A stretch of DNA of 64,000 nt from a phage (PZ171033.1); one strand, 5' to 3'. Shown: positions 13,418 through 55,713, counted from the first letter of the stretch. The notes: a model not told the origin generated them from the letters alone. Program-made: numbers and translations.

Positions 13418-13448
13418 AAGCCCCTCATTTGAGGGGCTTTTTTATTTT
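13418..13448. terminator. bidirectional terminator between convergent genes
   Basis: AAGCCCCTC-ATTT-GAGGGGCTT then TTTTTATTTT; A-rich on the other side. Confidence 0.7.
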
Positions 13449-16400: not shown

Positions 16401-19400
16401 TGATGGTATCGAACTTCTGCTGTGCATAATAACGATCAGCAGGGTTAGTACTATCTGGGTCAGCCATAAATGCTTCGACGGTCAGATTCTTAGTAACATG
16501 CGTGTAGTATTCCTGTGCACGAGCCATAGCAGCAGGGTTAACAGCAGCCTCGGTAGCCAGTGCAGCAACAATATTGGTAAAGAGACGCTGTTCCTGCATA
16601 TTCATGGTGAAGCCATGAGCCTGAACATCACGAGTTACTTTAGTTGCATTTACTACTGCATCAGAGAACTTACCTTTGCGAATTACTTGCTGTACTGGTT
16701 CTGAACCAATGTAGTTAGTAATTAGCTTATCAAAGGTTTTCCCTAGCTCTTCCAGACGAGTATTTTCACCATACGCTTTGTTATGGAACAGAGTAGTATC
16801 TTTGGCTACAGCAGCAGTAGGAGCTTGCCCACGCATTACTACAGCAGAGTTAAACAGTAAGCCAGAGAACATATCTTCTGCATTAGCAGGAGCTTTCTTA
16901 CGTCCAAATACCAGACGTTTGATTGCTTCATATACAGCCTGAACCATAGTTTTAAGTGCAGTGGTTTTCTTCTGCTTACTAATCAGTTCTCGGTTGGTTA
17001 AACCCCAAGCCATGTACTCGTTCAGTGCAGCAGCTTTAGCCATTGCTGGTTCAATAAAGCCATTGGATAGGTGACCATTAATGGTATTCAGTGCATCAGC
17101 ATATGCTTCTCGTACTGCCGGAGATTCATCCCTAACATCCAGAGCACGGAACTGATTCATCAGGTCTTCGATGTTCTGGACTGCTTCATTAGGAGTGCCT
17201 TCATAGTGAGCCAGTACAGATTCAAAAGTAGAAGCATGTACCAATTCATGAACCAGAGTCTCTAAGGAAGGGGTAACTAAGTAGATGGTTTTATCTTCAA
17301 AGTTAGTCCAGCCGTATGCATTACCAGCTTCAGCAGCTTCAATATCTTCCGGTGCTGGGCGAGTAATGTTCTTCTCAATAGCATAGGCATCCAATTGAGC
17401 AGGTGTACCGTAAACAACTTTATAGTCTTTAGCAGCAAGGGATTTCTGTATTTCTTTCAATACTTCTTGCTGTTCAGGAGACATCTCTTTAGCCAGTTTA
17501 GTAATGGCAGTGTTAGACAGCAGACGTACACCAGACTTCAGTACACGACCAACCTGTTCCATCGCCGGTACTTCTTCCACTGGTTCTGCTTTAGTAGCAC
17601 GTACTGCTTCACGACGCTTATTTAATTCAGCATCAAACAGTTCGTTCAGCTTAGCTACTTGCTGGTCTACAGTAAGACCTTCCAGAGAGATTTTACCGTT
17701 GTTCACATAAGGAGCACCTACGGCAGCCATCTGGTCAACAGTGACTTGTACCTGGTCCATTACCTTGTGACGAATATCTACACCCAGAGCAATGTTACGC
17801 AGGTTACGTTCAATCTGCTCAGCACCGACACGTAACAGGTCATCAGTAGCACCCTCACGTTGGTCATACTCCAGAGCAGACTTAGCGATAGCCTGTTTGG
17901 TTTCATCAGACAGTTTACTGAAGTCTACGTTCTTCATGAACTTAGCGTAGGAGTCATAAACATTCTTGATAGGGTTACCCTGCCAGGAAGTATATACAGC
18001 CTCATTAGCTTTGCGACTTGCATCAGTGATGTCATTGATACCAATGTTCATACCATCAAAGATTTTCAGGGTATTCTTCGGAGCACCTTTCATAGTAGAA
18101 AGTGTCTGCATCATCATGCCATCACCAGTACCGATGGTCATAAATGGAATACCTGCAACACCTGCCTGTGAAGGAGCATAAATGCTCATTGGCACACGCA
18201 TACGGTCATCTAAGTTAGTAGCCAGTACTTGGTTAGCAACATCAGTATTCTCACTACCAGCAATGTAGAAAGTCTGTGAACCAGTCTCAATCATTGGAGC
18301 CAGTGAAGATAATGATTCCTGGATTTCATTCAGTTCTTTCTGCGTTAAGAAATCACCTTTCTTCCAGGTTGGGTCTTTTTCTTTTTCTGCCAGCTTAGCC
18401 TGTACTGCTTGCTGGAACATATCCTGCAATACCAGAGATTGAATCTGGGTAGCCTTCTGCAAGTTCTCGGTAGAGTGCATCAGACCTTCACCAACAGTAT
18501 TACGGATACCAGTACGCATTGGTTCAACGAACAGGTGGAGCATGTTCTCTTGTAAGTTCTTCAGGGCATTACCGGATACGGTAAATTTCTGGGGGTCTAA
18601 CTTACCAGTCAGAGCACCATCTACTTGCTGAATAGACAACTCACCTTTACGCATAACTGGAACATTACCAGTCAGTGCTTCCATAGAAGTAAGGAAAGTA
18701 TCCAACATAGCCTGAGCATCAGCTTCAGACGCAGCCTCCTTACCAAACATTGCCATAGCTGGGGAAATGCTAGGGTCAGCAGCTCGTGCTTGCAGAACGT
18801 CACTGAAGCGTTCGTAGATGGTATCAGTAATTGCACTGACCATCTTGCCAGCAATACCACGAGCACCAGAACCATAGATGGTAATGGTCAGTGGGTTTTT
18901 AGCAATACCACGTTTCAGGTCCAGAGTACCGTCTTCATTCAGGTTAAAGTCTTTAATGAACAAGTCCATTAACTTCTGGAGATGATTCATCTGGCTCATA
19001 ACTGGAACGTTGTTACGGTAAGTAGTACGTAACTCATTCAGTGCTTGTTGAAGACCATTGGTAGATGCTTCATACAAGTCAACATTATCGTCGATAGAAC
19101 AATGTTCGTTCATCGTTTTACCAGCACGACCAAAGAACAAACCACCTTTGGCAGTGTTCTTAATCCAGTCTGGAGTGAACTTACCACCAGTCATTAATAC
19201 CATTGCGTTGATTGGGCCGTTGGTTACACCATCAGCTTCAACGTACAGTGGAGTAGTAAAATTAGCACGGTCATCACTGTTCAGGTAACGGGCATATTCC
19301 ATCAGAGCCATGAGAGCTACGAAGGATTTATCACTACCCAGAGAGGTCTTCAGGATGTCTACTGCATCTGTCGGTAAGTGACCAGACTTATCAAACTCAA

Positions 19401-22400
19401 CCATCATATCAACAGCAGGTTTCAGTTTACCTTCCAGAGCTTTAGTTAACTCTTCAGACATAACTTCACGGGACATTTTATGTACCTTGATGCCTAATGC
19501 CTGAGCCAGACCTAACTGGAAGTCAGAGAACGCTTGGCTGTTTTCATTACTCAAGTCGATAGTAGAGAAGGTTGGTAGGATTGCTTCACGAACCAGCTTA
19601 CTGGATTGTGGGTTGTTCTTACCAAGCATCTGCATACGACCTACACGGGTCATGTTATAACCGTAGTGGATAGGTGTATCCAGACCATTCTCTTGTTCTC
19701 GTATCTGATTAATTACACCGAACAGAGAATCATATGCCATAGACACGGACAGGTTTTTACCTTCCAAAGATTTAGCAGTGTTCGCGTTCAGTAATTCTGG
19801 ATTAAGAGTACCAGCACCCATCAGTTCCAGAATGTTGTCACGCCCCAATGCTTCATAGAAGTTAACCATTGGCATATGTACACGGAACTCGGTAGCCTGT
19901 TCAGCTTTCAGTGCAGCCTTCTGTTCAGGGGTATTCTTAACAGCAGGGTTACGCAACTGAGTCTGAGCCACAGAAGGAATGTCATCACCAAAGTACATTT
20001 TCTCTTCTGGTTCTAAGAGGACAGCTTCCTCAATAGCAGTAGGGAATTTATTAATGGCATCATTGTCATCCAACTTCTCAATGGTATACAGACCAACAGT
20101 CTTATTGGAGTCTGGGTCAATCTCAGACACATCCAACATAGACTCTTTAACTTCACCCATCTCAATGAGAGAAGACAGAATCTCTGTAGCCATTGCCATT
20201 GGGATACCTTTGGTATAACCCAGCGGTGCATTAGGATTACGATTCAAACCCCAGTAGGATTCAATCTTCTGAGCCAGTGAGTTAGTAGCTTCAACCAGGG
20301 TCTGGGCATTCTCGAACTCAGCCAGAATACCTTCTGGTAACAGAGATGCTTCTACGCCTGTAATAGCAGCTACGTCTTTCATATCTTTAATGGCAGCATT
20401 CTGTGTAGTAGTCAGTCGCCATTGCAAACCAGCAAGCACAGCAGTCTCTAACAACTGGTCGTTGAACTTAAAGGTATCCCCATCTTGTTCAACTATATTC
20501 AGCAGTTTGCCACCTACCCAACGGTTAGCTTCAGTACCTTCTGCAAAACGTTTACCAACGTTCTTATTAGCAAGGAACTTAGCCAGACGTTCAGACAAAG
20601 TAGTCTTCAGAGTTTCACCAAAGTCCATTAAGTCCTGATAACGCTTAATCACATCACTAGTGAGAGCGTTATTTTCTTTTTGAGTGAATGCCTCAAAGCG
20701 AGCAGCAGAAGACAGTGCTTGCTTAATATCAGTCAAAGGAGATTCTGAACCAATGGTACGGGACTTAGGTTCTTCCGGTAAGGTAAATGCTTTCAGGAAC
20801 TGGTTCGGTGTCTTTTCATTGTTATAGACAGGGAACACTGTTTCCATTTCTGTTTTGGTTTCAGCTACTTCCTGGATGGTATCCTCATTCTTGAGAATAG
20901 CATCTACTGTTTCAGGCTTAGTAGTAGAGACTTCTTCTGTTTTTGGACTAGTCTCCTTAGTAGGAGCAGTCTTATTTTCTACCACAGGTTTAGCTTTAGG
21001 CTGTACAGTAGTAGTGTCCTCTTGCACTGGTGCAGGAGATTCATCAACCTGATTCACTGGTTCATTAGTCTGTTGAGACTGAGTGGCATCAAGACCACCT
21101 TGACGGAACTCTTTAACTACCTGGGCAGCAGGCTTGTTCAGACGTGAATCCAACGAGGTAACTTTCACATGAGAAACATTAAGCTCCGGGTAAGCCGTAG
21201 CAAGTGCATTAGCAATATCAGCTACGGTTTTGGCTTCCAGTCCTACTTGCTGGGCAAACTTAACAGACTTGGTATCGTAAGGATTGACACCGAGGCCAGT
21301 ACGACTACGTACCCATTCACGGGAAGGCGAGAGAGCCTGATAATGAACAGACTTATTCTTATCCGCATTCCCCGAAATCAGATGCTCATTCAACGCTCCG
21401 ACCTTATTCTGCATGTGCTGGGCGAACTTCATAAAGTCGCTCAGATAAGCGGAGGCCAAATCGAAGTTACCAGAGTTATACGCAGAACGAATGCGTTTCG
21501 CATGTTGCAACGCAGAGTACTGTCCTTCATTAGAACGAGACTCGTCGGTTTTAATCTGTTTACTAACAATGTCTTGAGGACGTAAGCCTAGTTCTTCTGC
21601 TTTAGCGTCGAACTCACGTGCACCCTGTAACAAGGCAGCAGCAGATTGCAGGGCAGCACGTTGACGATTCCCCAGTGTAATCTTACCTTCACTTGCGTGC
21701 TTCAGAACCATGTTCACTGAATCTGCATCCAGTACTTCTGGAGACACATCAGCAGCCATAGCAATGTTGTTTGCTTGGGCTTGATTAGCTTCTTCAGTAG
21801 CTTTCAGCTTACCTGCTTCAGCCTGTTCCTGAATCATGGAATGGATGGCACGGAATGCACGGAGTACTTTAGGGGTATTCTGTACGTTAGCCATCAAGCC
21901 AGAGAACTGGTCTACGATTGTAGCAGCAGGAGAACCTTGTTCCAGATTAGCCAGAGCACCTGGGTCACGGTTAATGAAGCTATCCATAGACATGATGTTG
22001 TCATACATCTGGATTGCAGCTTCCATTTGAACGTTAGGGTCTTCAGCAGTATTAACCAGGTCAGCCATCTTCTGAATAGCTTCAACACGGTTAGTGGAAC
22101 CAGAAACAGCTTCACGGATTGCCGGGTTAGCTTGTTCCAATTCTACCGGGTCAAACTTCATTGCCTGAGTTAAGTCAGCAGCATACTGGGTAGCAGCAGC
22201 TTTCTCTTCTGGAGTGATGTCCATTGCATCCACTGCTTCTTGTACAGTTGCCTGTGCTTGTTCTGCCTGAGCAGCAGCTTCCTGTGCAGCAGCATTAACC
22301 GTAGCATCAGCTACAGGGGATGCTTGTTCATTACGCTTAGCAACTTCTTCACCACGTTGAATCAGGATGTTAGTAAGAGGGGATGCAGCTTTTGCTAATG

Positions 22401-23817
22401 TTTTGCCAACCAGAGAAGCACCAGCCAGGGTAGTACGAAGAGCAGGGCCAGCAGAAGCACCAACTGCTTTAACAGTTGTACCAGGAGCTTGAGCAACCCC
22501 AGCACTACCGAATCCATAAAGTGCACCCAGACCTGCTTGCTCACCAACCCCTTTGAGGGTGTCACGGGATGCATCAACGTTTTCTTTGATTGCAGTATTC
22601 TGTGCGAACTGACCAAAGCCGGATTGAATACCTTCTTCGACTGTTTCACGTAGCATATTAGAACCAGCACCTGCCAGTGAACCTACCTTAAGTGGGTTAA
22701 GTTCAAAGCGAGATACCAGTGGACCGGTAGCAGCAGCAACTGGAGCAGTTAAGCCAGCAGCAATGATACCTGTTTCAGATGCAGTCTGACGTCGTGCTTC
22801 ATCAGGAGATAAACCATCAGCAATATGTTGCTGGTAAACAGGAGACTTACTTGCCAGTTCTTGGTGGGACATCTTCATGATTTCAGAAGCAGTCTGTTGG
22901 TATGCACCACCAGCTTCCATACCACCAATTGCAATAGCAGGTGCAGCAACACGACCAGCAGACAGTGCAACCTGTGCAGGACGTGAACCTAACCCAGCAG
23001 CTAAGGTAATACCTTTAACAGCTTTATCACCTCCTACCATTACTTTACCTAATGCAGATACACCACGGATAAGTGGACCACCAGTAAAGAGGGAACCAAC
23101 ACCTTCACTCAGTCCGTCGGAAGCAGCCATACCATTATCAAGTGTATTAGCAACAGAATCAAAAGCGTCACGACCAATACGAGACAGGGAGGCAACCAAA
23201 TCGCTCTCTCCGTTTTTTATATCTTGTTCATAGAGTTTCTGGTTCTTTTGGGCAGAAATCTGGTTCTGATTCTGAACAACTTTACGGGTAGCATTCAGTG
23301 CATCAGACTGTAGATTGTGTACACCTTCATTCAACCAATCCATCCCGGAAGCAATGGATGCCCCGGCATTATCATTGACCAGACCTGTGCCAAGAGCAGC
23401 AATGCCCCCAAGGGTATTAGCAACACCAAGACCAACACCAGAAAGAGTATCGCCAAATGCTTCTGCGTTAGTACGTTGTTTAGATAAGCCCTGACGTACA
23501 ACATCAGTAGCATTAGCTCGGCTATTAAGAATCTGTAAACCTTGCTCATTACCATACTTATTAATGATTTCTAAGGGAGAGGCTTGAGTGAAATCTGCCT
23601 GAAGTGAACCGGGTTCGAATGCACCGATTCCAAGATTACCTACTCGTCCAGTCTGGAGATTGTAAGCGTTCTCTGGGGTTAATTGGAAAGGGCTTTGCCC
23701 TTGTGCAGCTTGCTTCTGAGAGGTTGCAGTAGAGACATCGACTTGCTTAGCATTAGTGATGCTGTCTGCGAAACCTGCCAGACGGTCAAATGTTGACATA
23801 GCATGTTTCCTGTTCAA
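13447..23817 (-). CDS. virion-encapsidated RNA polymerase (N4 gp50-like vRNAP), 3456 aa
   Basis: Single 10.4-kb ORF; central T7-like motifs A (YVEADGVTNGPINAM) and B (KRGIAKNPLTITIYGSG); size matches N4 vRNAP. Confidence 0.9.
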   Translation of the reverse strand: MNRKHAMSTFDRLAGFADSITNAKQVDVSTATSQKQAAQGQSPFQLTPENAYNLQTGRVGNLGIGAFEPGSLQADFTQASPLEIINKYGNEQGLQILNSRANATDVVRQGLSKQRTNAEAFGDTLSGVGLGVANTLGGIAALGTGLVNDNAGASIASGMDWLNEGVHNLQSDALNATRKVVQNQNQISAQKNQKLYEQDIKNGESDLVASLSRIGRDAFDSVANTLDNGMAASDGLSEGVGSLFTGGPLIRGVSALGKVMVGGDKAVKGITLAAGLGSRPAQVALSAGRVAAPAIAIGGMEAGGAYQQTASEIMKMSHQELASKSPVYQQHIADGLSPDEARRQTASETGIIAAGLTAPVAAATGPLVSRFELNPLKVGSLAGAGSNMLRETVEEGIQSGFGQFAQNTAIKENVDASRDTLKGVGEQAGLGALYGFGSAGVAQAPGTTVKAVGASAGPALRTTLAGASLVGKTLAKAASPLTNILIQRGEEVAKRNEQASPVADATVNAAAQEAAAQAEQAQATVQEAVDAMDITPEEKAAATQYAADLTQAMKFDPVELEQANPAIREAVSGSTNRVEAIQKMADLVNTAEDPNVQMEAAIQMYDNIMSMDSFINRDPGALANLEQGSPAATIVDQFSGLMANVQNTPKVLRAFRAIHSMIQEQAEAGKLKATEEANQAQANNIAMAADVSPEVLDADSVNMVLKHASEGKITLGNRQRAALQSAAALLQGAREFDAKAEELGLRPQDIVSKQIKTDESRSNEGQYSALQHAKRIRSAYNSGNFDLASAYLSDFMKFAQHMQNKVGALNEHLISGNADKNKSVHYQALSPSREWVRSRTGLGVNPYDTKSVKFAQQVGLEAKTVADIANALATAYPELNVSHVKVTSLDSRLNKPAAQVVKEFRQGGLDATQSQQTNEPVNQVDESPAPVQEDTTTVQPKAKPVVENKTAPTKETSPKTEEVSTTKPETVDAILKNEDTIQEVAETKTEMETVFPVYNNEKTPNQFLKAFTLPEEPKSRTIGSESPLTDIKQALSSAARFEAFTQKENNALTSDVIKRYQDLMDFGETLKTTLSERLAKFLANKNVGKRFAEGTEANRWVGGKLLNIVEQDGDTFKFNDQLLETAVLAGLQWRLTTTQNAAIKDMKDVAAITGVEASLLPEGILAEFENAQTLVEATNSLAQKIESYWGLNRNPNAPLGYTKGIPMAMATEILSSLIEMGEVKESMLDVSEIDPDSNKTVGLYTIEKLDDNDAINKFPTAIEEAVLLEPEEKMYFGDDIPSVAQTQLRNPAVKNTPEQKAALKAEQATEFRVHMPMVNFYEALGRDNILELMGAGTLNPELLNANTAKSLEGKNLSVSMAYDSLFGVINQIREQENGLDTPIHYGYNMTRVGRMQMLGKNNPQSSKLVREAILPTFSTIDLSNENSQAFSDFQLGLAQALGIKVHKMSREVMSEELTKALEGKLKPAVDMMVEFDKSGHLPTDAVDILKTSLGSDKSFVALMALMEYARYLNSDDRANFTTPLYVEADGVTNGPINAMVLMTGGKFTPDWIKNTAKGGLFFGRAGKTMNEHCSIDDNVDLYEASTNGLQQALNELRTTYRNNVPVMSQMNHLQKLMDLFIKDFNLNEDGTLDLKRGIAKNPLTITIYGSGARGIAGKMVSAITDTIYERFSDVLQARAADPSISPAMAMFGKEAASEADAQAMLDTFLTSMEALTGNVPVMRKGELSIQQVDGALTGKLDPQKFTVSGNALKNLQENMLHLFVEPMRTGIRNTVGEGLMHSTENLQKATQIQSLVLQDMFQQAVQAKLAEKEKDPTWKKGDFLTQKELNEIQESLSSLAPMIETGSQTFYIAGSENTDVANQVLATNLDDRMRVPMSIYAPSQAGVAGIPFMTIGTGDGMMMQTLSTMKGAPKNTLKIFDGMNIGINDITDASRKANEAVYTSWQGNPIKNVYDSYAKFMKNVDFSKLSDETKQAIAKSALEYDQREGATDDLLRVGAEQIERNLRNIALGVDIRHKVMDQVQVTVDQMAAVGAPYVNNGKISLEGLTVDQQVAKLNELFDAELNKRREAVRATKAEPVEEVPAMEQVGRVLKSGVRLLSNTAITKLAKEMSPEQQEVLKEIQKSLAAKDYKVVYGTPAQLDAYAIEKNITRPAPEDIEAAEAGNAYGWTNFEDKTIYLVTPSLETLVHELVHASTFESVLAHYEGTPNEAVQNIEDLMNQFRALDVRDESPAVREAYADALNTINGHLSNGFIEPAMAKAAALNEYMAWGLTNRELISKQKKTTALKTMVQAVYEAIKRLVFGRKKAPANAEDMFSGLLFNSAVVMRGQAPTAAVAKDTTLFHNKAYGENTRLEELGKTFDKLITNYIGSEPVQQVIRKGKFSDAVVNATKVTRDVQAHGFTMNMQEQRLFTNIVAALATEAAVNPAAMARAQEYYTHVTKNLTVEAFMADPDSTNPADRYYAQQKFDTIMGANNIEFDAQGRSSLLPTFVGLAMVSEEVRKVLADIPVMKADKKSGNTVDAMLTNIGTAAMASLNARVAGDTKATNVQEGMDALAQTIMQTSLNAESFYDSVATPTGNAIDRANQYLVDSIDVLSTRALEGAREVAANTNNPLVKGAAHAAQLVAAIATEKNGAIVAEGVMAAMNQGKVWQPFHDLVNDLTGRTKSNASVYDLIKAVRAQVQADRQQFREHLPTTIASKFSRKLTNDEWKVMHTGMGKTDLAVLRDTMSLAEIRDLLTDQKIVDREVNKLEADLQKQAGRNWPLINRKSKQLAQYMINGTVGKNLLRNATAISRMLGERQAARSTVDVAQLDKLITLYALEAMNKSDREMLSSLAQTEVDGMDFATSYLVGQRKDEMAKAKSDMRATLNQYKGHIPSETKQGVNLIVAEDSQFADLIEKSYVRLGTYQGSSANRGPARSYYFAPVQAQAPFSQGILQNVRNTAGGVDLGTGFTMGTMVAGRITDKPSVDRITKALARGERGNEPLLPVYDANGNVVAYEQSIDPNMLKHIEGENHLARAIGVWRGRQVEEAKAQRFNDMLIENLHSMYENDIKMSASNKSQYVNLLGSKLDPVTADALKLMNSETRQKAESLFGPGELWVRRDMLNDALGYRAASVGDAWSGNSRWSQETLDTFKKAMLGVFGNRAYKYVMGGENLVQNLVKEAKTLIVVKSVVVPAVNFLANLYQMVARGVPVKNIAKSIPQKTAEINQYLKSRLRQVDAEAELRAATNPNQIRKLKAEIQSISDSHKRLSIWPLLEAGEFSSIADAGIGRDDILITEGKLHEYMDKLADKLPKSVRNAGRYALITKDTALFQGIQKTVEYSDFIAKAIIYDELTQRKGKTREEALGRVTEEFINYDRLPGRFRGYMESVGLMWFYNFKIRSAKVAVSMIRNNPVHAAMAMLAPTPTMFGNVGLPIQDNIFSIAAQGNLGYSFGFGQGLRAHNLNPWMNLIN

Positions 23818-47989: not shown

Positions 47990-48148
47990 CTGCTTATAAG
48001 TGAGATAGCTATGATATTTTTGCATGTCAAAATGTTGATAGCTATGTATGGCTACAGTGGTGTGGCTGGGGCTACACCCTTACACTCAACCATCCCCCCC
48101 GGTATGTTGACCGTGTAGCCACTACCCTACCCCACCTTACACGTTACA

Positions 48149-48161
48149 CATGCTCCGCATG
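48149..48161 (+). promoter_or_regulatory. vRNAP-promoter-like hairpin (5-bp stem, 3-nt loop)
   Basis: CATGC-TCC-GCATG; template strand reads GCGGAGC; 44 nt upstream of ORF 48205. Confidence 0.45.
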
Positions 48162-48204
48162 TTATGGACATGTCGTCCTATCATCAACTATTGGAGCTAT
48201 CATC

Positions 48205-48528
48205 ATGACCACTACCGCTACTGTACGTATGACTGCAGGAACTTTACTTGGTACTGTTAACTCAGCTGCTACTACTGTTGCAGATACATTTGGTACAGCA
48301 ACTAAAGCAGTAGGTATGCTTAATTCATATGTAAGTACTATGGCAGAGAAACAAGCCATCCGTACTAAATTAGAAATGCATACCTTTGTTAATAAACTGG
48401 CAGAGGAAACAGCTATGACTGAGACTCTGCGTAAGAAAAGTATCGAGGAATTCTGCAAGGATTCAGAGAACGCTCGTATCTATAACGCAGAATATTCCAA
48501 AGTAATTGACATCCTGACTAAAGACTAA
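48205..48528 (+). CDS. hypothetical early protein
   Basis: ORF with GGAG RBS, downstream of promoter-like hairpin 48149-48161; terminator follows. Confidence 0.5.
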   Translation: MTTTATVRMTAGTLLGTVNSAATTVADTFGTATKAVGMLNSYVSTMAEKQAIRTKLEMHTFVNKLAEETAMTETLRKKSIEEFCKDSENARIYNAEYSKVIDILTKD

Positions 48529-48535
48529 GTCACAT

Positions 48536-48562
48536 AGGAGACTCTTCGGAGTCTCCTGTTTT
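48536..48562 (+). terminator. rho-independent terminator
   Basis: AGGAGACTC-TTCG-GAGTCTCCT then GTTTT. Confidence 0.65.
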
Positions 48563-48637
48563 GAACATTAGATAGATAGTCAAAAGTAGATAACTATCTA
48601 CTTTAAGTTAACTAACTCGCACTATCTTTAAAAGAAA

Positions 48638-48650
48638 GACGCTCCGCGTC
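48638..48650 (+). promoter_or_regulatory. vRNAP-promoter-like hairpin (5-bp stem, 3-nt loop)
   Basis: GACGC-TCC-GCGTC; same GCTCCGC core; upstream of ORF 48762. Confidence 0.45.
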
Positions 48651-48761
48651 TAAAGGATAAGAATGAATCCACTTCTTATCGAAATCTTAAGTCTTTTCTT
48701 GGGTTTAGTCACCGACAGACAAACCCATAAATCAAAAAATCATTTATCTGGAGAGTACAAA

Positions 48762-49142
48762 ATGTCTATTCAAAAATTCACTTTCGGTCAATCTAACACT
48801 GCTGCTTCTACTGCTAAAGCTGATAAACCAAAAGCTCAGTTCTGGCTGAACATTGGTTATGTGGCTAATGAAGGCTCTGATGATGAGAAATTCATCTCAC
48901 TGCCTACTGGTATTCCATTGGATACTCAGGAACCGCTGCCTACTAACAGCAGCAATGCTGACTTCCGTGCTATGCGTTGTGCACAGAACGATTTGCTGGA
49001 ACAGTTAATCGAATATGCTCAGAACCTGGAACCAGGTGAAGAGGGTATCATTAACCTGCAAGTTCAACTTCGTCGTGTGAAAGCAGAGGCTGCTGACATC
49101 CCAGCAGACGAGAATAAATATGCTCGTAAACTGACTTTCTAA
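48762..49142 (+). CDS. hypothetical early protein (possible N4 gp2-like ssDNA-binding activator; speculative)
   Basis: Internal ATG with GGAGAG RBS preferred over track start 48663; flanked by promoter-like hairpin and strong terminator. Confidence 0.45.
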
Positions 49143-49152
49143 TCAACCAATA

Positions 49153-49180
49153 GACTCCCTTCAGGGAGTCTTTTATTTTT
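49153..49180 (+). terminator. rho-independent terminator
   Basis: AGACTCCC-TTCA-GGGAGTCT then TTTTATTTTT. Confidence 0.7.
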
Positions 49181-49285
49181 AACTAGACGATAAGCTATTT
49201 CTACTTTTTGAGTATCTTTAGACGAAGGGTACTGAAACAGTAACCAGATAGATATAGATTTATATTAGATGAAGGAGTAACCATT

Positions 49286-49582
49286 ATGCGTACAATTTGT
49301 AACCGTTATAACTCACAGAAGTTGATTGAAATGTTACAACCTTGGGGTAGTAAGATGGCACTGAATGCACGTTGGCAGGTATCTGTAGAAGGTGCAAATG
49401 GTCAGTGTTATGACCACTTCTTTGTAGCTAAGCCTACTCGTAAACAAATCCGTAAACTCCATAAAGTACGTAAGCATTACTTACTAAGCAAATGCTACGA
49501 ATGCGGAAAAAGGATAGAACTGGGTAAAGAATTTACCTGGGATGGCTTAAACTATGCACACACTGACTGCCTGAAAGGATAA
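49286..49582 (+). CDS. hypothetical protein with Cys/His cluster
   Basis: C-terminal CYECGKRIELGKEFTWDGLNYAHTDC; GAAGGAG RBS. Confidence 0.5.
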   Translation: MRTICNRYNSQKLIEMLQPWGSKMALNARWQVSVEGANGQCYDHFFVAKPTRKQIRKLHKVRKHYLLSKCYECGKRIELGKEFTWDGLNYAHTDCLKG

Positions 49583-49586
49583 GACT

Positions 49587-49805
49587 ATGTTGGACTTCAT
49601 TGCGTTTGTAATACTCTGTTATGTGCTGTATCGCCTGCGTGGTTACATTCTCAATGGAGCCAAGTGGGTAAGAACTAAGCTGGTACTTATCTGTAAGTTA
49701 CCAGTTGTATTCGTTAAGTGTCTGTTTGCTTCCATAGTAGCTAAAGAAGTTCGTAAGCAACTCTGGGCTAAAGAAGCAGAAGAGTTTGCAAAGAGGAACC
49801 AGTGA
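49587..49805 (+). CDS. small membrane protein
   Basis: Hydrophobic N-terminus FIAFVILCYVLY. Confidence 0.4.
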   Translation: MLDFIAFVILCYVLYRLRGYILNGAKWVRTKLVLICKLPVVFVKCLFASIVAKEVRKQLWAKEAEEFAKRNQ

Positions 49806-49967
49806 TATTCACTAACATTGAGGATGCCATTGAAGAATGTATCTTCCGTAGATATCACACTGGAGTACAGAAAAGACACTATGGTGTTGTACAGCTCAAT
49901 GGCTATCAAATGGCTGTAAGAATTGTACGTAACAATAAACCTTTTAACTTTATGTGGAGTACTAAAC

Positions 49968-50150
49968 ATGCGTAAGTCATTAATCATGGGAACCAGAGAA
50001 GATGTGTCACGTTTACGTAATCGTAATGCAGCAAGCAAACGGGCACTCAGCATGACCAATGAACAACTGAAAGAATTCATTGATTCAGGACTTAAGCAAA
50101 GTAAAGCTCGTATCGTAACCTTTAATCACCCTGCAATCTTAGGAGAATAA
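49968..50150 (+). CDS. hypothetical small protein
   Basis: ATG with GGAG 7 nt upstream; shorter than track ORF 49923. Confidence 0.4.
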   Translation: MRKSLIMGTREDVSRLRNRNAASKRALSMTNEQLKEFIDSGLKQSKARIVTFNHPAILGE

Positions 50151-50151
50151 A

Positions 50152-50367
50152 ATGTATTTCACTATCTTAATCACCTTAACCTACTTAAGCGTATGGCTTA
50201 CCTCAGAAGCAGCTAATATCACTAAAATGTTTCGTATTAAAGGAGATGTCAGGGGATTTGCTGTATTCGGGTATGTCACTGTACTAAGTAAGGGAGCCAG
50301 TGTTGGATATGTAATATGGTACATTTGGTACTGCTTCGGTGATTTACTTACGAATCTGTTCAAATGA
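50152..50367 (+). CDS. small membrane protein
   Basis: Two hydrophobic segments; terminator downstream. Confidence 0.4.
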   Translation: MYFTILITLTYLSVWLTSEAANITKMFRIKGDVRGFAVFGYVTVLSKGASVGYVIWYIWYCFGDLLTNLFK

Positions 50368-50430
50368 ACTGGCCTATCTCAATAATCATGCTTGCACTGT
50401 TAACCTATGGTGCATTAGTAGAACTGGGAG

Positions 50431-50462
50431 TCCTCCATTAGGGGGACTTCTATTTTTTATTT
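50431..50462 (+). terminator. rho-independent terminator
   Basis: GTCCTCC-ATTA-GGGGGAC (imperfect) then TTCTATTTTTTATTT. Confidence 0.55.
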
Positions 50463-50487
50463 AGATAAATAGACTCAGGAGATAACC

Positions 50488-50706
50488 ATGCAACAAGAAC
50501 ATATCGAATCATTAGAGTATATGTGCCGTATGTACGGTGTTTATGAAGTAGCTAAAACAATAAAGAATTATGCTAAGAAAACCAGTAAAGAGTATAAGAA
50601 AGCTGGTAATGAAGGTGCAATAATCCACCAGGATGCTGAAATCTTAGATACTGCATGCAATGCAATGGCTATTGCCCATCCACTAAGGAGTAAAGATGTT
50701 AAATGA
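50488..50706 (+). CDS. hypothetical protein
   Basis: ORF with GGAG RBS after terminator. Confidence 0.45.
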   Translation: MQQEHIESLEYMCRMYGVYEVAKTIKNYAKKTSKEYKKAGNEGAIIHQDAEILDTACNAMAIAHPLRSKDVK

Positions 50707-51007
50707 AATTGTTTGTATACTTCCTCATTCAGCTAAGATAGCTGACCGGAATATACGTATACACTTACCATTCCCATTAAGCAATCCATTCACTCGTAAT
50801 GAAAGAACCACAGTAGAAGATGTAGAGGTAGCTTATGAAGCTTACCTTCGTAATCGTCTTATTAGTGGTGACAAGTTAATTACAGCAGAGATGGAAAGGA
50901 TTGCATCCTTTGTAACAGATAGTACAGGTAAGCCTGTTGGCTTAATTGGTACTGAATCTGATGTTAACGTTATTCGTAAAATATTAATGGAGGCTTTAAG
51001 CCAATGA
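50696..51007 (+). CDS. hypothetical protein
   Basis: Translationally coupled ORF. Confidence 0.45.
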   Translation: MLNEIVCILPHSAKIADRNIRIHLPFPLSNPFTRNERTTVEDVEVAYEAYLRNRLISGDKLITAEMERIASFVTDSTGKPVGLIGTESDVNVIRKILMEALSQ

Positions 51008-51225
51008 TGTACACGAGCGATTATGGTATTTGCCCAGTCTGTAAGAAAGGACGTGGAGTTGCCAATCATAAACGTTGTAGTCGTATATTACAGAAACAAC
51101 GGAACCAGGAAGAATGGGATAAGTTGTTAAATAATCAGCACAAAGAAGAAAATCAACAGATGGCTGTTAAAGCATCTACTCAACGTATTCGCCGTATTAA
51201 CTATATACAAGGATACCAAAAGTGA
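51004..51225 (+). CDS. small zinc-ribbon-like protein
   Basis: CPVCKKGRG...HKRC motif. Confidence 0.4.
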   Translation: MMYTSDYGICPVCKKGRGVANHKRCSRILQKQRNQEEWDKLLNNQHKEENQQMAVKASTQRIRRINYIQGYQK

Positions 51226-51479
51226 TTATTACCTATCCTACTCACAAGATGGTTGAATATATGGGAAGCACTGTCGATGTCCCTTTATGGGTTAATTACA
51301 TTGCTTTGCTTCCTAATGTATTTACTAAGAGTTCAACCTTAATTGGATTCAGTCATAAACCTAAACTAACTGACCAAGGAATATGGGTTAGTAAGAAAGG
51401 TAAGCAAGAAGATATAGGCGTTATGACACGCTTTAAACCCACTAAAGATTTAATCTACGGTACTTTAAGGAAAGTATGA
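51222..51479 (+). CDS. hypothetical protein
   Basis: Coupled ORF. Confidence 0.4.
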   Translation: MIITYPTHKMVEYMGSTVDVPLWVNYIALLPNVFTKSSTLIGFSHKPKLTDQGIWVSKKGKQEDIGVMTRFKPTKDLIYGTLRKV

Positions 51480-51790
51480 ATAACATAATAGTAGTACACG
51501 ATAATACATTTACTGATGTAGATAAGATGATGCGTAATATTGATTATGTATCTCAGACTAGTAAAGCATTCAATGAAGAGTTTACTCTGTACTGTAATGC
51601 TGAATCTCCACTGGTTCCTATTCTTAAGGAATCAGGACTACCATTCTCTACAGAGAACTTCCCGGAAGAACCAGACTATGTAATTTCATTTATCTATGAC
51701 TTACATGATGGTTCTGAAACTAGTGAATTAGCTATGAACCAGTGGCGTAGTAAACGTCCTGTATTCCCATTCCAGGTACTTAAACCATGA
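51476..51790 (+). CDS. hypothetical protein
   Basis: Coupled ORF. Confidence 0.4.
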   Translation: MNNIIVVHDNTFTDVDKMMRNIDYVSQTSKAFNEEFTLYCNAESPLVPILKESGLPFSTENFPEEPDYVISFIYDLHDGSETSELAMNQWRSKRPVFPFQVLKP

Positions 51791-52167
51791 AGATTATGTC
51801 ATTAGGTGACGATACCAATGCTTTACTTGGTGTATCTGCACGTCCAATTATTATTGTTAATAAACATCGTGGTAAATCCGGTGAGTATATTGGACGTGGT
51901 TCACCGTTAGGCAATCCATTTGTCATTGGTAAACATGGAACCAGAGAGCAAGTAATTGCTAAGTATAAAGTCTGGTTACAAGAACAGATTGATAAAGGTA
52001 ATCCAGTTGTATTGGATGAACTTAATCGTCTGGGTAATAAAGCCATTGATGAGAAAGGGCTAGCCTTACAATGCTTCTGTTATCCGAAACCGTGTCATGG
52101 TGAGGTTATTAAAGAGAAGCTAGTGAAAGCTATGTATAACTATTTTGTGGAGAATCCTAATGGATAA
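51787..52167 (+). CDS. hypothetical protein, DUF4326-like (GNPF motif)
   Basis: Motif YIGRGSPLGNPF. Confidence 0.4.
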   Translation: MKIMSLGDDTNALLGVSARPIIIVNKHRGKSGEYIGRGSPLGNPFVIGKHGTREQVIAKYKVWLQEQIDKGNPVVLDELNRLGNKAIDEKGLALQCFCYPKPCHGEVIKEKLVKAMYNYFVENPNG

Positions 52168-52345
52168 GCAATGCAAATGTGGTAAAGGCCATGTATCCCA
52201 ATGGGATGGTAAATGTGGTCATTGCCGAACCAAGAAAGAACAGCGTGACCATGAATATGCTCTTACTTACTTAGAAGTAACTCGTAAATACAACAATATG
52301 ACCACACACGATGCTTATACTTACAACAGAGAGGCATGTAAATGA
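52145..52345 (+). CDS. small Cys-rich (zinc-finger-like) protein
   Basis: CKCGKGH...CGHC. Confidence 0.4.
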   Translation: MWRILMDKQCKCGKGHVSQWDGKCGHCRTKKEQRDHEYALTYLEVTRKYNNMTTHDAYTYNREACK

Positions 52346-52722
52346 AAGAAATCTTAGTATTCGGAAGTAATTTAGCAGGCCGTCATGGTGCTGGTGCAGC
52401 AAAAGTTGCATATAAGAAGCATGGTGCTCGTTGGGGTATGGGCGTAGGCCATTATGGTTGCAGCTATGCAATCCCAACCAAAGACCAGAACATCAAATCT
52501 ATGAAACTGGATGACATCAAAGTATTCGTAGATGCTTTCATCCTATACGCAGCATCACACCCAGAGTGGGACTTTAAAGTAACACGCATTGGTTGTGGTT
52601 TAGCTGGATATAAGGATGAAGAAATTGCTCCTATGTTTGCCAATGCTACAGGCAATGTCATGTTTGACGAAGCCTGGAAGCCTATTCTGGGAAATGATTA
52701 TATCTACTGGGGAACCTTCTAA
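52342..52722 (+). CDS. hypothetical protein with Gly-rich Rossmann-like motifs
   Basis: ILVFGSNLAGRHGAGAAKVA and IGCGLAGY motifs; family not recognised with certainty. Confidence 0.4.
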   Translation: MKEILVFGSNLAGRHGAGAAKVAYKKHGARWGMGVGHYGCSYAIPTKDQNIKSMKLDDIKVFVDAFILYAASHPEWDFKVTRIGCGLAGYKDEEIAPMFANATGNVMFDEAWKPILGNDYIYWGTF

Positions 52723-52982
52723 TGACATATGAAGAACTATGGGCTGCTCAGGTCAGAGCCAGAGCACTCACACGGCATGACATCTATTGTGCATTACAGA
52801 ACGAATTAAAGGGACGTACTAAGCTAGGTCACATATCAGGTTTCATTAAAATACCTATGCGTAGTCTAGTATGGCCTTATAAAGAAAAAAGTAATGAATT
52901 TAGCGGTAATGGTTTATATGTACGTATCAACTACCTTGGTCAAGAGAACAATATTCGTATTGCCTTTTGGACTAAGCGTTAG
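52722..52982 (+). CDS. hypothetical protein
   Basis: Coupled ORF ending just before promoter-like hairpin. Confidence 0.4.
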   Translation: MTYEELWAAQVRARALTRHDIYCALQNELKGRTKLGHISGFIKIPMRSLVWPYKEKSNEFSGNGLYVRINYLGQENNIRIAFWTKR

Positions 52983-52987
52983 GTAAT

Positions 52988-53002
52988 AGCTGCTCCGCAG
53001 CT
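52988..53002 (+). promoter_or_regulatory. vRNAP-promoter-like hairpin (6-bp stem, 3-nt loop)
   Basis: AGCTGC-TCC-GCAGCT; same GCTCCGC core; 34 nt upstream of RNAPII small subunit gene. Confidence 0.45.
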
Positions 53003-53035: not shown

Positions 53036-53854
53036 ATGTACTCATCTATTGAACATCAGAAGCAGCTTGAAGTCCTTTTTAACAAAAACCAATTACTGCC
53101 TCGCATGAGGAAGGAATTCGAGGACTCCAAAGAAATTGACTTTAAGGCATTCGCTGCCTATTTAGAAATTGATTATAAGCTGCTCATTGATGCAATGGTG
53201 CAGATTGCCCTACATAAACGTGCTGACATCCAGACTATGATTGGCTCTCTCATGAGTCACTCAGATGATGCTCAGTACATCGCTGACTGTCTGTATAAGA
53301 TGGCAGAGAATGACTGCTTCAACTATGACCCTACCATCGACAAGTTCGGTGTTATCTATGAGATTAGTGAAGATGTTCAGATGGAACTGGAAGCATTCCA
53401 GTATCCATTACCAATCGTCAGTAAACCTAAGCCTGTCCTGACTAACCGGGACACTGGTTACTATGAGTCTAAAGGCTCAATCATCCTCAAGAAGAACCAT
53501 CATGAGATGGACGTCTGCCTTGACCACATTAACCGCATGAACAACCAACGTCTCTGTATTAACTGGGACGTTGCTAACTATGTAAAAGACTCTCGTCCTA
53601 ACATGGATAAACCCAAAGAGGGTGAAACCCGTCAGGATTATGAGAAACGTGTTAAAGCCTTTGAGAAGTACAGTCGTACTGCTAAGGAAGTAATGGAGTT
53701 AGTAACCAAAGAGGGCAATAACTTCTCGCTAGCGCATAAGTATGACAAGAGGGGCAGAACCTATGCCTGTGGATACCACATTAACTATGCGGGGACTTCA
53801 TATAACAAGGCAGTGATTGAATTTGCAGATAAAGAACTAGTAAACGAGGATTAG
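53036..53854 (+). CDS. phage RNA polymerase II, small subunit (N4 gp15-like; N-terminal half of a T7-type RNAP)
   Basis: 272 aa; DxxGR-type motif YDKRGRTYACGY; TAGGAG RBS. Confidence 0.75.
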   Translation: MYSSIEHQKQLEVLFNKNQLLPRMRKEFEDSKEIDFKAFAAYLEIDYKLLIDAMVQIALHKRADIQTMIGSLMSHSDDAQYIADCLYKMAENDCFNYDPTIDKFGVIYEISEDVQMELEAFQYPLPIVSKPKPVLTNRDTGYYESKGSIILKKNHHEMDVCLDHINRMNNQRLCINWDVANYVKDSRPNMDKPKEGETRQDYEKRVKAFEKYSRTAKEVMELVTKEGNNFSLAHKYDKRGRTYACGYHINYAGTSYNKAVIEFADKELVNED

Positions 53855-53855
53855 T

Positions 53856-54437
53856 ATGAAGACATGTTCAGTATGTAAGAAGAACTTGCCTCTGGACATG
53901 TTCAATAAACAGTCCACTGGCAAACAGGGTGTTAGGGCAGACTGTAAAGACTGCCTTAAACGCTTTATCCGTTCAAAACACGGAGTCATTAATCAGATGT
54001 ACTCCGGTTGTATCAGTAGAACCAAGAAGAAGGGATTTACTTCCGTATCCTTCACTAGGGAGGAGCTAGAGAAATGGGTATATTCATGCAAAGAATTTCA
54101 CACATTGTATGACAAGTGGGTATTGGAAGATTATCCAACTGCCTTGAAACCTAGCTTAGACAGACTGGATGATTACAAAGGTTATTCCCTGGATAACATT
54201 CGTATTGTTACAGCCAATACCAACGTAAAGAGGTACTACTCTGATGCAATCAACGGCATCAATACTAAATCAGCTAAGCCCGTTGAGCAGTACTCACTAG
54301 ATGGTGAATACATTAGGACATTCCATTCACTTAGTGCTGCTGCACGAAGTGTTAATGGTATACCTTCTAATATTAATCAAGTAATTAATGGTACGTATGC
54401 GCAAGCATATGGCTATAAGTGGAAACTAGGAGCCTAA
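53856..54437 (+). CDS. homing-endonuclease-like protein (zinc finger + HNH_3-like domain + NUMOD1-type DNA-binding tail)
   Basis: CxxC...CxxC N-terminus; SLDRLDDYKGYSLDNIRIVTANTN; C-terminal ...INGTYAQAYGYKWK. Confidence 0.6.
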   Translation: MKTCSVCKKNLPLDMFNKQSTGKQGVRADCKDCLKRFIRSKHGVINQMYSGCISRTKKKGFTSVSFTREELEKWVYSCKEFHTLYDKWVLEDYPTALKPSLDRLDDYKGYSLDNIRIVTANTNVKRYYSDAINGINTKSAKPVEQYSLDGEYIRTFHSLSAAARSVNGIPSNINQVINGTYAQAYGYKWKLGA

Positions 54438-54438
54438 G

Positions 54439-55656
54439 ATGCAGATTTTCACAGCTAAAGAATATTTAAAAATTGATATTGCCAATTCTTACGGGCTGGA
54501 TAAGAAGACATGGGATGAACGTATTAGCTGGTTCGATGAGAACGAAGCTAACCTGCTTAATCTGGTAGATGAAGCAGAAGAATCCGCACTGTTCTATGCA
54601 GGTGTAAACGCATGGAAAGATATGAAAGCCGGTAAGCCTATCGGTTATGCCGTAGCTCTGGATGCTACATCATCAGGCTTACAGTTACTGGCTTGCCTGA
54701 CTGGTGACCGTTCTGCTGCTGAACTGTGTAACGTAGTTAACTACATGGGCGAGAATGGTAAGCCATTACGTCGTGATGCTTATACAGTTATCTATCACAA
54801 GATGCTGGACATCCTTGGTGAAGCATCACGTATTAAACGTAGTGACACTAAGCAAGCAGTTATGACTGCATTCTACGGTTCAGAAGCCAAACCTAAAGAA
54901 GTATTCGGTGAGGGTATCCGTCTCAAGACTTTTGAGAATGTAATGGAAACGGTTGCTAGTGGTCCTTGGGCATTGAACAAGTTCTTACTGCAATGTGGTA
55001 ACCCGGATGCTAACCGTTACGTATGGGTACTGCCTGACAACTTCCATGCTGTCATTAAGGTCATGGTTCCAGAGGTACAGACTGTTAACTTCTTAGGAAA
55101 ACCATTCGACATCACTCGTATGGTTCAGGGTACTGAAGAGAAGACTCGTATGCTCTCTGCTAATATCACTCACTCTATTGATGGGATGGTGGTACGTGAG
55201 ATGCTGCGTCGTTGTAACTTCAACATGAACCAGGTGAGCTATGTTAAGTCACTTTGTGAAGGAACCTGTGATTACATGGTAGGTACTAGTGAGAATTACG
55301 ACATGGTTAGCCAACTGTGGCATAGCTATGAGAAATCAGGTTTCCTGTCTACCCGCATCTTTGATTATCTGGATTCCGACTCAGTTAAACTGGTTGATAC
55401 AGATGTAGTGCTGGCTATGCTGAACACTCTGCCTAAGAAATCATTCCCTGTAATGACCGTACATGACTGCTTCCGTTGCCATCCTAACTATGGCAATGAC
55501 CTGCGTCGTCAGTACAATCAGATTCTGTCTGACATTGCTAAGAGTGACCTACTGGGCTTCATTCTGTCTCAGGTACTGGGGCAAGAGTTCTCTGCTGGTA
55601 AGCTGGATGACAGCCTCTGGCAGGACATTCTCGAAACAGACTATGCATTAAGTTAA
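54439..55656 (+). CDS. phage RNA polymerase II, large subunit (N4 gp16-like; catalytic half of a T7-type RNAP)
   Basis: 405 aa; motif A ALDATSSGLQLLA, motif B KQAVMTAFYGS, motif C VMTVHDCF. Confidence 0.8.
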   Translation: MQIFTAKEYLKIDIANSYGLDKKTWDERISWFDENEANLLNLVDEAEESALFYAGVNAWKDMKAGKPIGYAVALDATSSGLQLLACLTGDRSAAELCNVVNYMGENGKPLRRDAYTVIYHKMLDILGEASRIKRSDTKQAVMTAFYGSEAKPKEVFGEGIRLKTFENVMETVASGPWALNKFLLQCGNPDANRYVWVLPDNFHAVIKVMVPEVQTVNFLGKPFDITRMVQGTEEKTRMLSANITHSIDGMVVREMLRRCNFNMNQVSYVKSLCEGTCDYMVGTSENYDMVSQLWHSYEKSGFLSTRIFDYLDSDSVKLVDTDVVLAMLNTLPKKSFPVMTVHDCFRCHPNYGNDLRRQYNQILSDIAKSDLLGFILSQVLGQEFSAGKLDDSLWQDILETDYALS

Positions 55657-55663
55657 TAAACTA

Positions 55664-55696
55664 GCCTCATTCCTTCGGGAGTGAGGCCTATTTTTT
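55664..55696 (+). terminator. rho-independent terminator after RNAPII genes
   Basis: 10-bp stem GCCTCATTCC/GGAGTGAGGC with TTCG tetraloop, then CTATTTTTT. Confidence 0.75.
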
Positions 55697-55713
55697 GCTT
55701 GGAGGTAATAACT

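Follow-up and report, generated by a model that had tools for sequence, protein, structure and literature searches.

The early region and its three hairpins

The subject of this study is a group of three small hairpins in the early region of an N4-like coliphage genome, analysed in a stretch of 64,000 nucleotides (PZ171033.1, hereafter the window). By nucleotide identity the window belongs to a Gamaleyavirus (G7C-like; Schitoviridae, Enquatrovirinae, N4-related), and its early region is ~90% identical to those of Gamaleyavirus genomes, for example PhAPEC7, IME11, Bp4, St11Ph5 and PGN829.1. Homologues of the coliphage N4 genes for gp1, gp2 and the subunits of RNA polymerase II (RNAPII) lie here on the plus strand, and each hairpin occupies a short gap between same-strand open reading frames (ORFs). 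The hairpins, labelled after the N4 promoters P1, P2 and P3, and the genes that they would serve are as follows:

48148..48162, plus strand: P1-type hairpin, ACATGC-TCC-GCATGT; heptamer GCTCCGC at 48152-48158, loop centre (-11) at 48155, predicted +1 = G 48166
48205..48528, plus strand: N4 gp1 homologue, putatively served by P1; 66% identity to N4 gp1, E = 7e-51; phrog_5020
48637..48651, plus strand: P2-type hairpin, AGACGC-TCC-GCGTCT; heptamer at 48641-48647, loop centre at 48644, predicted +1 = G 48655
48663..49142, plus strand: N4 gp2 homologue (RNAPII cofactor), putatively served by P2; 68% identity to N4 gp2, E = 7e-86; phrog_4099
52988..53002, plus strand: P3-type hairpin, AGCTGC-TCC-GCAGCT; heptamer at 52992-52998, loop centre at 52995, predicted +1 = G 53006
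53036..55656, plus strand: RNAPII operon, putatively served by P3, identified by the phrog matches of its genes
53036-53854, plus strand: gp15 homologue, RNAPII subunit; phrog_2166, E = 8e-116
53856-54437, plus strand: HNH/endonuclease VII-like ORF of 193 aa, between the gp15 and gp16 homologues; phrog_1035, E = 7e-29
54439-55656, plus strand: gp16 homologue, RNAPII subunit; phrog_2051, E = 2e-176

The three sequences lie where an earlier reading of the window (the original prediction) had placed them, at 48149, 48638 and 52988, as candidate promoters for the virion RNA polymerase (vRNAP) of an N4-like phage. Each consists of a 3-nt TCC loop on a fully paired stem of 6 bp, within the 5-7-bp stem and 3-nt loop of N4-type vRNAP promoters; the prediction was right about the loop and the third stem, but took the first two stems, which are also of 6 bp, to be of 5 bp. 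The identical GCTCCGC core that it described for all three is present in exactly three copies in the 64 kb, every one of them on the plus strand, and the hairpins do stand upstream of rightward genes that include the RNAPII operon, in the left-end early region and on the strand of the early genes. At all three sites a GG dinucleotide is found 11-12 nt past the loop centre (48166-7, 48655-6 and 53006-7). From the predicted +1 of P2 the ATG of the gp2 homologue is 8 nt further on, and from that of P3 the ATG of the RNAPII small subunit is 30 nt further on. The start had originally been put ~10 nt downstream of the hairpins, which needs revision: it is expected 11 nt from the loop centre, that is, 4 nt past the 3′ end of a 6-bp stem.

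A random frequency of the motif in coding regions had been offered as grounds for rejecting the idea, and here the outcome is divided, as the bare 7-mer occurs at the chance rate (3 observed versus 2.32 expected; 44 of 100 shuffles reach 3) whereas the hairpin is non-random. Because the bare 7-mer is not enriched, the hairpin was tested in its place: hairpins built on a GC-TCC-GC core with a stem of 6 bp or more number 3 in the window, against a mean of 0.018 and a maximum of 1 in 1000 dinucleotide-preserving shuffles. A relaxed scan of the window, permitting one core mismatch, C or T at the loop centre and as few as three of the four outer pairs, gave no additional site with GG at +1/+2.

It might still be argued that these are chance palindromes which happen to share a 7-mer. 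The chance rate of the 7-mer alone would fit this, as would a general excess of short inverted repeats in the window: with 6-bp arms and spacers of 2-12 nt there are 29-46 for each spacer length versus 17.5 expected (~2x), an excess that is seen at every spacer length from 2 to 12, is mostly intragenic and has no common motif, while unspaced palindromes with 6-bp arms are slightly depleted (13). Hairpins with a 6-bp stem and a 3-nt loop number 43 in the window versus 18 expected. Against chance stand the shuffles described above, the absence of a common core from the other 40 of these 43 hairpins (mostly intragenic, and rejected as a second motif class), and the conservation of the sites across three genera. 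The shuffles and the comparative data together refute a chance origin, to which we assign practically no probability.

Promoter determinants and the virion polymerase

P1, P2 and P3 of N4 are vRNAP hairpin promoters (Haynes & Rothman-Denes 1985; Glucksmann et al. 1992; as reviewed in PMC4496689), in which a GC-rich heptamer is centred at -11 with inverted repeats on both sides (PMC4496689). In the N4 genome (NC_008720) we find them as GTTGC-TTC-GCAAC (P1, 90-102, before gp1), AAGAAGC-TCC-GCTTCTT (P2, 557-573, before gp2) and AAGCTGC-TCC-GCAGCTT (P3, 4546-4562, before gp15); the hairpin at 90-102, reverse-complemented, gives the P1 template oligo ...GTTGCGAAGCAAC from recent cryo-EM work (PMC12633501). 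Recognition by N4 vRNAP involves -11A/G, -10G, -8G and +1C; the loop-closing G:C pair, with the 5′ G and 3′ A of the loop, is required for extrusion and stability; and the enzyme initiates with two GTPs, pairing at +1 and +2 (PMC4496689).

Every one of these sequence determinants reported for N4 is found at the window sites. The template strand reads 5′-GCGGAGC-3′ at all three (-8G, -9C, -10G, -11G, -12A, -13G, -14C), a heptamer whose centre, at -11, is a purine and which also provides -8G, -10G, -12A and the closing G:C pair, and, as judged from sequence, the template carries C at +1 and +2 (giving an RNA that starts with G), 11 nt past the loop centre. The original prediction was therefore correct in describing the template loop as GGA with a central purine, and we propose that the active form of the P1-type hairpin is that of the template (minus) strand, with the loop 5′-GGA-3′. 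Its statement that the N4 loop is GGA-like is true of N4 P2 and P3, but not of N4 P1, where the loop is GAA. The very stable GCGNAGC mini-hairpin has been illustrated with GCGGAGC from the N4 promoter (PMC13037366), and the template core of the window is an instance of it, having two G:C pairs and, in the loop, a sheared G:A pair; d(GCGNAGC) is a structural motif and not a functional family, whereas in the window it sits inside a longer stem and is the proposed target of a polymerase.

The likeness between the two phages thus extends from the position of the three left-end sites (before gp1, gp2 and gp15) and the 5-7-bp stem with its 3-nt loop to the template heptamer GCGGAGC centred at -11, the GG at +1/+2 and the contact residues of the polymerase (below). 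The stem core of P3 (AGCTGC/GCAGCT) is the same in both; in contrast, the P1 of the window has a GGA template loop on a 6-bp ACATGC stem where N4 P1 has GAA on a 5-bp GTTGC stem, and the P2 stem is AGACGC in the window and AAGAAGC in N4. The N4 sites have been mapped in vivo, in vitro and structurally, whereas those of the window are predicted.

A polymerase suited to such promoters is encoded in the same genome:

13447..23799, minus strand: virion RNA polymerase (N4 gp50 homologue), 3450 aa; aligns end to end with the solved N4 vRNAP chains

The mechanical ORF has 3456 codons (13447-23817) and begins at TTG 23817, the likely start being ATG 23799. This is a single-subunit RNA polymerase of the N4 gp50 type, 66% identical to N4 gp50 overall and 70.6% over the mini-vRNAP domain. 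All five promoter-contact residues are identical and their local context is conserved: in mini-vRNAP numbering, the -11 recognition element contributes K114, R119 and W129, and the specificity loop D901 and R904 (1111, 1116, 1126, 1898 and 1901 in the full-length protein).

From this we consider it highly probable that the three hairpins are early promoters read by the virion-packaged RNA polymerase, and that they are the orthologues of N4 P1, P2 and P3. Promoter function is deduced from orthology, sequence determinants and conservation, and from these we also infer the start sites; orthology with N4, the determinants, the contact residues and the covariation described below all support the original proposal of candidate vRNAP promoters.

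Conservation and covariation among relatives

A search for the stem-TCC-stem pattern in related genomes, which the original prediction had recommended, bears this out. The early regions of 13 genomes were covered, 12 of them Enquatrovirinae (eight viral contigs, PhAPEC7, N4, PMBT57 and KP8) and one, phiAxp-3, of the Rothmandenesvirinae; with the window they hold 43 such hairpins. In eleven Enquatrovirinae early regions every plus-strand GCTCCGC (40/40) is flanked by three further complementary pairs and is thus part of a hairpin; selection bias from the stem filter is minimal because all 40 passed it. The sites are kept at orthologous positions in three genera; all 43 instances lie on the strand of the downstream gene, in the same orientation, and 42 of them have GG at +1/+2, the sole exception being at 503-515 in G7C (L004). 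The two distant RNAPII relatives (viral contigs L010 and L011, 37-38% identity) have no comparable motif.

In a gap-free alignment of the 32 distinct promoter sequences, the heptamer (save for C/T at -11) and +2G do not vary, +1G hardly varies, and T or A is tolerated at -1. The outer stem behaves otherwise: pairs -15/-7 and -16/-6 show two-sided changes in 15/32 sequences each, with none unpaired, and pair -17/-5 does so in 4/32; the sixth stem pair is kept in 26/32, and the seventh and eighth are mostly unpaired, in agreement with the stem length of 5-7 bp known from N4. Covariation scores 0.412 in the alignment, whereas shuffles give 0.132 ± 0.021 and sliding the partners gives no more than 0.09. 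Variable stem positions thus keep their complementarity, which points to conservation of structure rather than of sequence.

These data also bear on whether the sites could instead be double-stranded palindromic operators for a dimeric regulator of phage or host. Each site is a 15-bp near-palindrome, intergenic and upstream of a gene, as an operator might be; against this, the invariant centre, TCC, lacks symmetry and points the same way relative to the downstream gene in 43/43 instances, the outer arms vary and yet stay complementary, which fits readout of a hairpin and not of a sequence-specific duplex, and the same genome encodes a polymerase with conserved hairpin-contact residues. We regard operators as extremely improbable.

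The vRNAP promoter design has been described before in this subfamily. In Klebsiella phage KP8 the same motif was published as putative early promoters P1-P4 (PMC6950046), and the RefSeq record of KP8 (NC_048700) annotates the hairpins as 'early promoter' regulatory features. KP8 and the window have the same arrangement of a stem, GC-TCC-GC, the complementary stem and GG 11 nt from the loop centre, and the KP8 promoters were also identified via their similarity to N4. KP8 differs in having four hairpins, the extra one serving a small ORF that lies between the homologues of gp1 and gp2, whereas the window has the minimal N4-like three; the last KP8 hairpin precedes an extra ORF ahead of the RNAPII gene. 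Further afield, early hairpin promoters are known in the Pseudomonas N4-like phages LUZ7, LIT1 and PEV2 (PMC3715699); like those of the window they lie in the early region and are small hairpins on the template strand, with a 3-nt loop, for a virion RNA polymerase and with a preference for a guanosine start, but their stems are of at least 4 bp and they serve other genes. In Erwinia phage Frozen (L017) the strict pattern with a 3-nt loop is absent from the locus, and a hairpin with a 4-nt loop, ACTTGC-TTCC-GCAAGT followed by TTATGGA, lies at 537-552 upstream of a gp2-like gene (24.8 bits, E = 4e-4), which suggests that loop size varies in the Erskinevirinae.

Several points weigh against promoter function as we read it. 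Although the hairpin is the predicted fold of every template strand in nearest-neighbour DNA folding, its stability is modest (-5.5 to -5.9 kcal/mol, z -1.5 to -2.2), in a model without a dedicated term for G-N-A mini-hairpin loops. When both strands were scanned with a covariance model, filters off, the three sites scored 35-39 bits and the match after them 15 bits, but these high scores are partly by construction, the three sites being in the training set. The P2 of the window has A at -1 of the coding strand (48654) and so a pyrimidine, T, on the template, whereas N4 has a template purine at -1 in all three of its promoters, said to stack on the initiating GTP (PMC4496689); the pyrimidine may lower the efficiency of P2. 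Coding A at -1 is common to 8/32 of the distinct related promoter sequences, and so it is tolerated. Nine early starts of LUZ7 have been mapped by ONT-cappable-seq at 13-14 nt from the hairpin centre (PMC9163698), versus 11 nt here; the 11-nt spacing is therefore a rule of the N4 clade and not a universal one. Lastly, in the literature searched, neither mapped 5′ ends of early RNA nor in vitro transcription, nor tests of rifampicin resistance or of dependence on gyrase and SSB, were found for any Gamaleyavirus.

Transcription units, terminators and cassettes

Beyond the hairpins and their genes, the early region holds the following features:

48062..48464, strand not assigned: putative direct terminal repeat (DTR) and physical left end of the genome, from homology (starts of relatives' records and the Mimir124 DTR)
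48536..48563, plus strand: terminator-like hairpin AGGAGACTC-TTCG-GAGTCTCCT followed by GTTTTG, 3′ of the gp1 homologue, from direct reading of the sequence
49152..49181, plus strand: terminator-like hairpin and T-run, 3′ of the gp2 homologue, from the terminator scan; PhAPEC7 annotates a terminator at the equivalent place
55664..55697, plus strand: terminator-like hairpin and T-run, 3′ of the gp16 homologue, where the P3 unit would end, from the terminator scan

The records of many relatives begin at window position ~48062-48065, and the physical left end of the genome is therefore placed there; the distance of P1 from the left end is ~90 nt in the window and likewise in N4, G7C, KP8 and phiAxp-3. 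The record of Mimir124 annotates a 403-bp DTR starting at the equivalent of ~48062, and the terminal repeat of this phage is reported as 401 bp (PMC11640937). By analogy, P1 and most of the gp1 homologue would fall inside the terminal repeat of our phage, and P1 would hence be present at both ends of the virion DNA.

We propose that, as in the N4 model, the genome's left end would enter the host first and its DNA would be supercoiled by host gyrase, so that the inverted repeats extrude as cruciforms. The template core 5′-GCGGAGC-3′ would then form an unusually stable mini-hairpin, in which two G:C pairs close a GGA loop with a sheared G:A pair, and the single-stranded DNA-binding protein (SSB) of E. 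coli would melt the non-template hairpin and spare that of the template. Binding of vRNAP would be via the central loop purine, -11G, together with -10G and the stem base -8G, and RNA synthesis would start (pppGpG) opposite the template CC at +1/+2, at a distance of 11 nt from the loop centre. It is by analogy with N4 that we expect extrusion, dependence on SSB and starts at 48166, 48655 and 53006.

Three short units would result. P1 would drive the gp1 homologue as far as the hairpin terminator at 48536-48563; P2 would drive the gp2 homologue up to the terminator at 49152-49181; and P3 would drive the gp15 homologue, the HNH-like ORF and the gp16 homologue up to the terminator at 55664-55697. 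Jointly, their products would provide the machinery of middle transcription. In N4 gp15 adjoins gp16 with no intervening gene, whereas in the window the HNH-like ORF (53856-54437) separates them, and it looks like a homing-endonuclease insertion within the early RNAPII operon. The hairpin at 48536-48563 is unlisted by the consensus terminator scan, as its extended stem consumes the first T of the tail. Between this terminator and P2 lies a palindrome, GTAGATA-AC-TATCTAC (48586-48601, plus strand), with TAGATA-like repeats at 48570-48579; part of the palindrome (ATAACTATCTAC) is also found upstream of N4 P2.

With terminators close by, it has to be asked whether the three hairpins are themselves RNA-level intrinsic terminators, or terminator-promoter punctuation, instead of or besides promoters. 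The terminator-like sites of the consensus scan do include the third hairpin (AGCTGCTCCGCAGCT, then TTTTGGTTATT), there is no separate terminator between the end of the preceding ORF at 52982 and this hairpin, and N4 P2 and P3 are likewise followed by TTTTGG. However, the G+C-rich stem with a T-run, downstream of a gene, that marks an intrinsic terminator is not a feature of the set, since the T-rich tail is present only at the third hairpin. Only ~90 nt separate the first hairpin from the physical left end, and in the linear genome no gene precedes it that would need terminating; the second is followed by AAAGG with no T-run, and a much stronger terminator (48536-48563) already stands 80 nt upstream of it. 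The clear terminators of this genome have 8-12-bp stems and 4-nt loops, and a terminator has no need for an invariant asymmetric loop, for invariant closing pairs or for GG at 11 nt in 42/43 instances. We therefore judge this explanation very unlikely.

A wider version, in which the hairpins are early promoters and in addition serve as modular punctuation (P3 as a terminator-promoter, exchange of cassettes, and 5′ stem-loops that tune stability or translation), seems to us unlikely, without being negligible. Under it, the P3-type hairpin and its U-rich tail could, as RNA, halt transcripts coming from upstream, and the site could so act as a combined terminator and promoter.

As regards cassettes, relatives carry three or four hairpins, and hairpin-plus-small-ORF cassettes seem to have been gained, lost and swapped among the Enquatrovirinae. 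In some relatives a fourth hairpin stands before a small additional ORF that intervenes between the homologues of gp1 and gp2, and in three contigs a P3-type hairpin lies directly before a different inserted gene, with the GGAG or GGAA at +1 ~10 nt from its ATG; the sites concerned are in L004 (503-515), L006 (147-161), L008 (2083-2097 and 6720-6734), KP8 (L015; 962-978), L002 (6694-6708) and L009 (6717-6731). In some relatives the +1 GGAG would double as the ribosome-binding site of the inserted gene. Directly 5′ of most P2-type and extra hairpins, and not of the P1 and P3 types, is an A-rich TTAAAA(A)CC or TTTAAAAGAA (at 48628-48636 in the window; also in L002, L006, L007, L008, L009, L012 and L015), which may be an AT-rich flank easing extrusion or may have been inherited with the cassette.

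The predicted transcripts have 5′ stem-loops of their own. That of P1 is GGAC-AUGUC-GUCC (48166-48178, plus strand), with GGACA-UGU-UGUCC as the counterpart in N4 and KP8 and a compensatory GGGUA-UGU-UGCCC in phiAxp-3. The predicted P2 RNA has an 8-bp stem, GAUAAGAA/UUCUUAUC (48656-48680, plus strand), which overlaps the gp2 start codon; its minimum free energy is -8.0 kcal/mol (z = -2.98) and 0/200 shuffles fold equally well. The 5′ RNA folds of P1 (z = -0.64) and P3 are indistinguishable from shuffles. The stem-loop around the gp2 start codon might tune stability or translation.

Predictions of hairpin early promoters are routine in genome papers on N4-like phages; the promoter class is thoroughly characterised, the feature is ordinary for the family, and our analysis opens no new question on transcription. 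The Gamaleyavirus records of PhAPEC7 and Mimir124 have no promoters annotated, and no paper on vRNAP promoters in a Gamaleyavirus was found in the literature searched, which did not cover the original G7C paper. What is new here is the hairpins themselves, one-to-one with N4 P1-P3, in an undescribed Gamaleyavirus ~90% identical to known ones. The main value of the finding is in annotation, as it provides three early transcription units with predicted +1 sites; in addition, the cross-genus set of promoters amounts to compact natural mutagenesis data for the N4 vRNAP promoter, which agree with the published biochemistry and slightly extend it.

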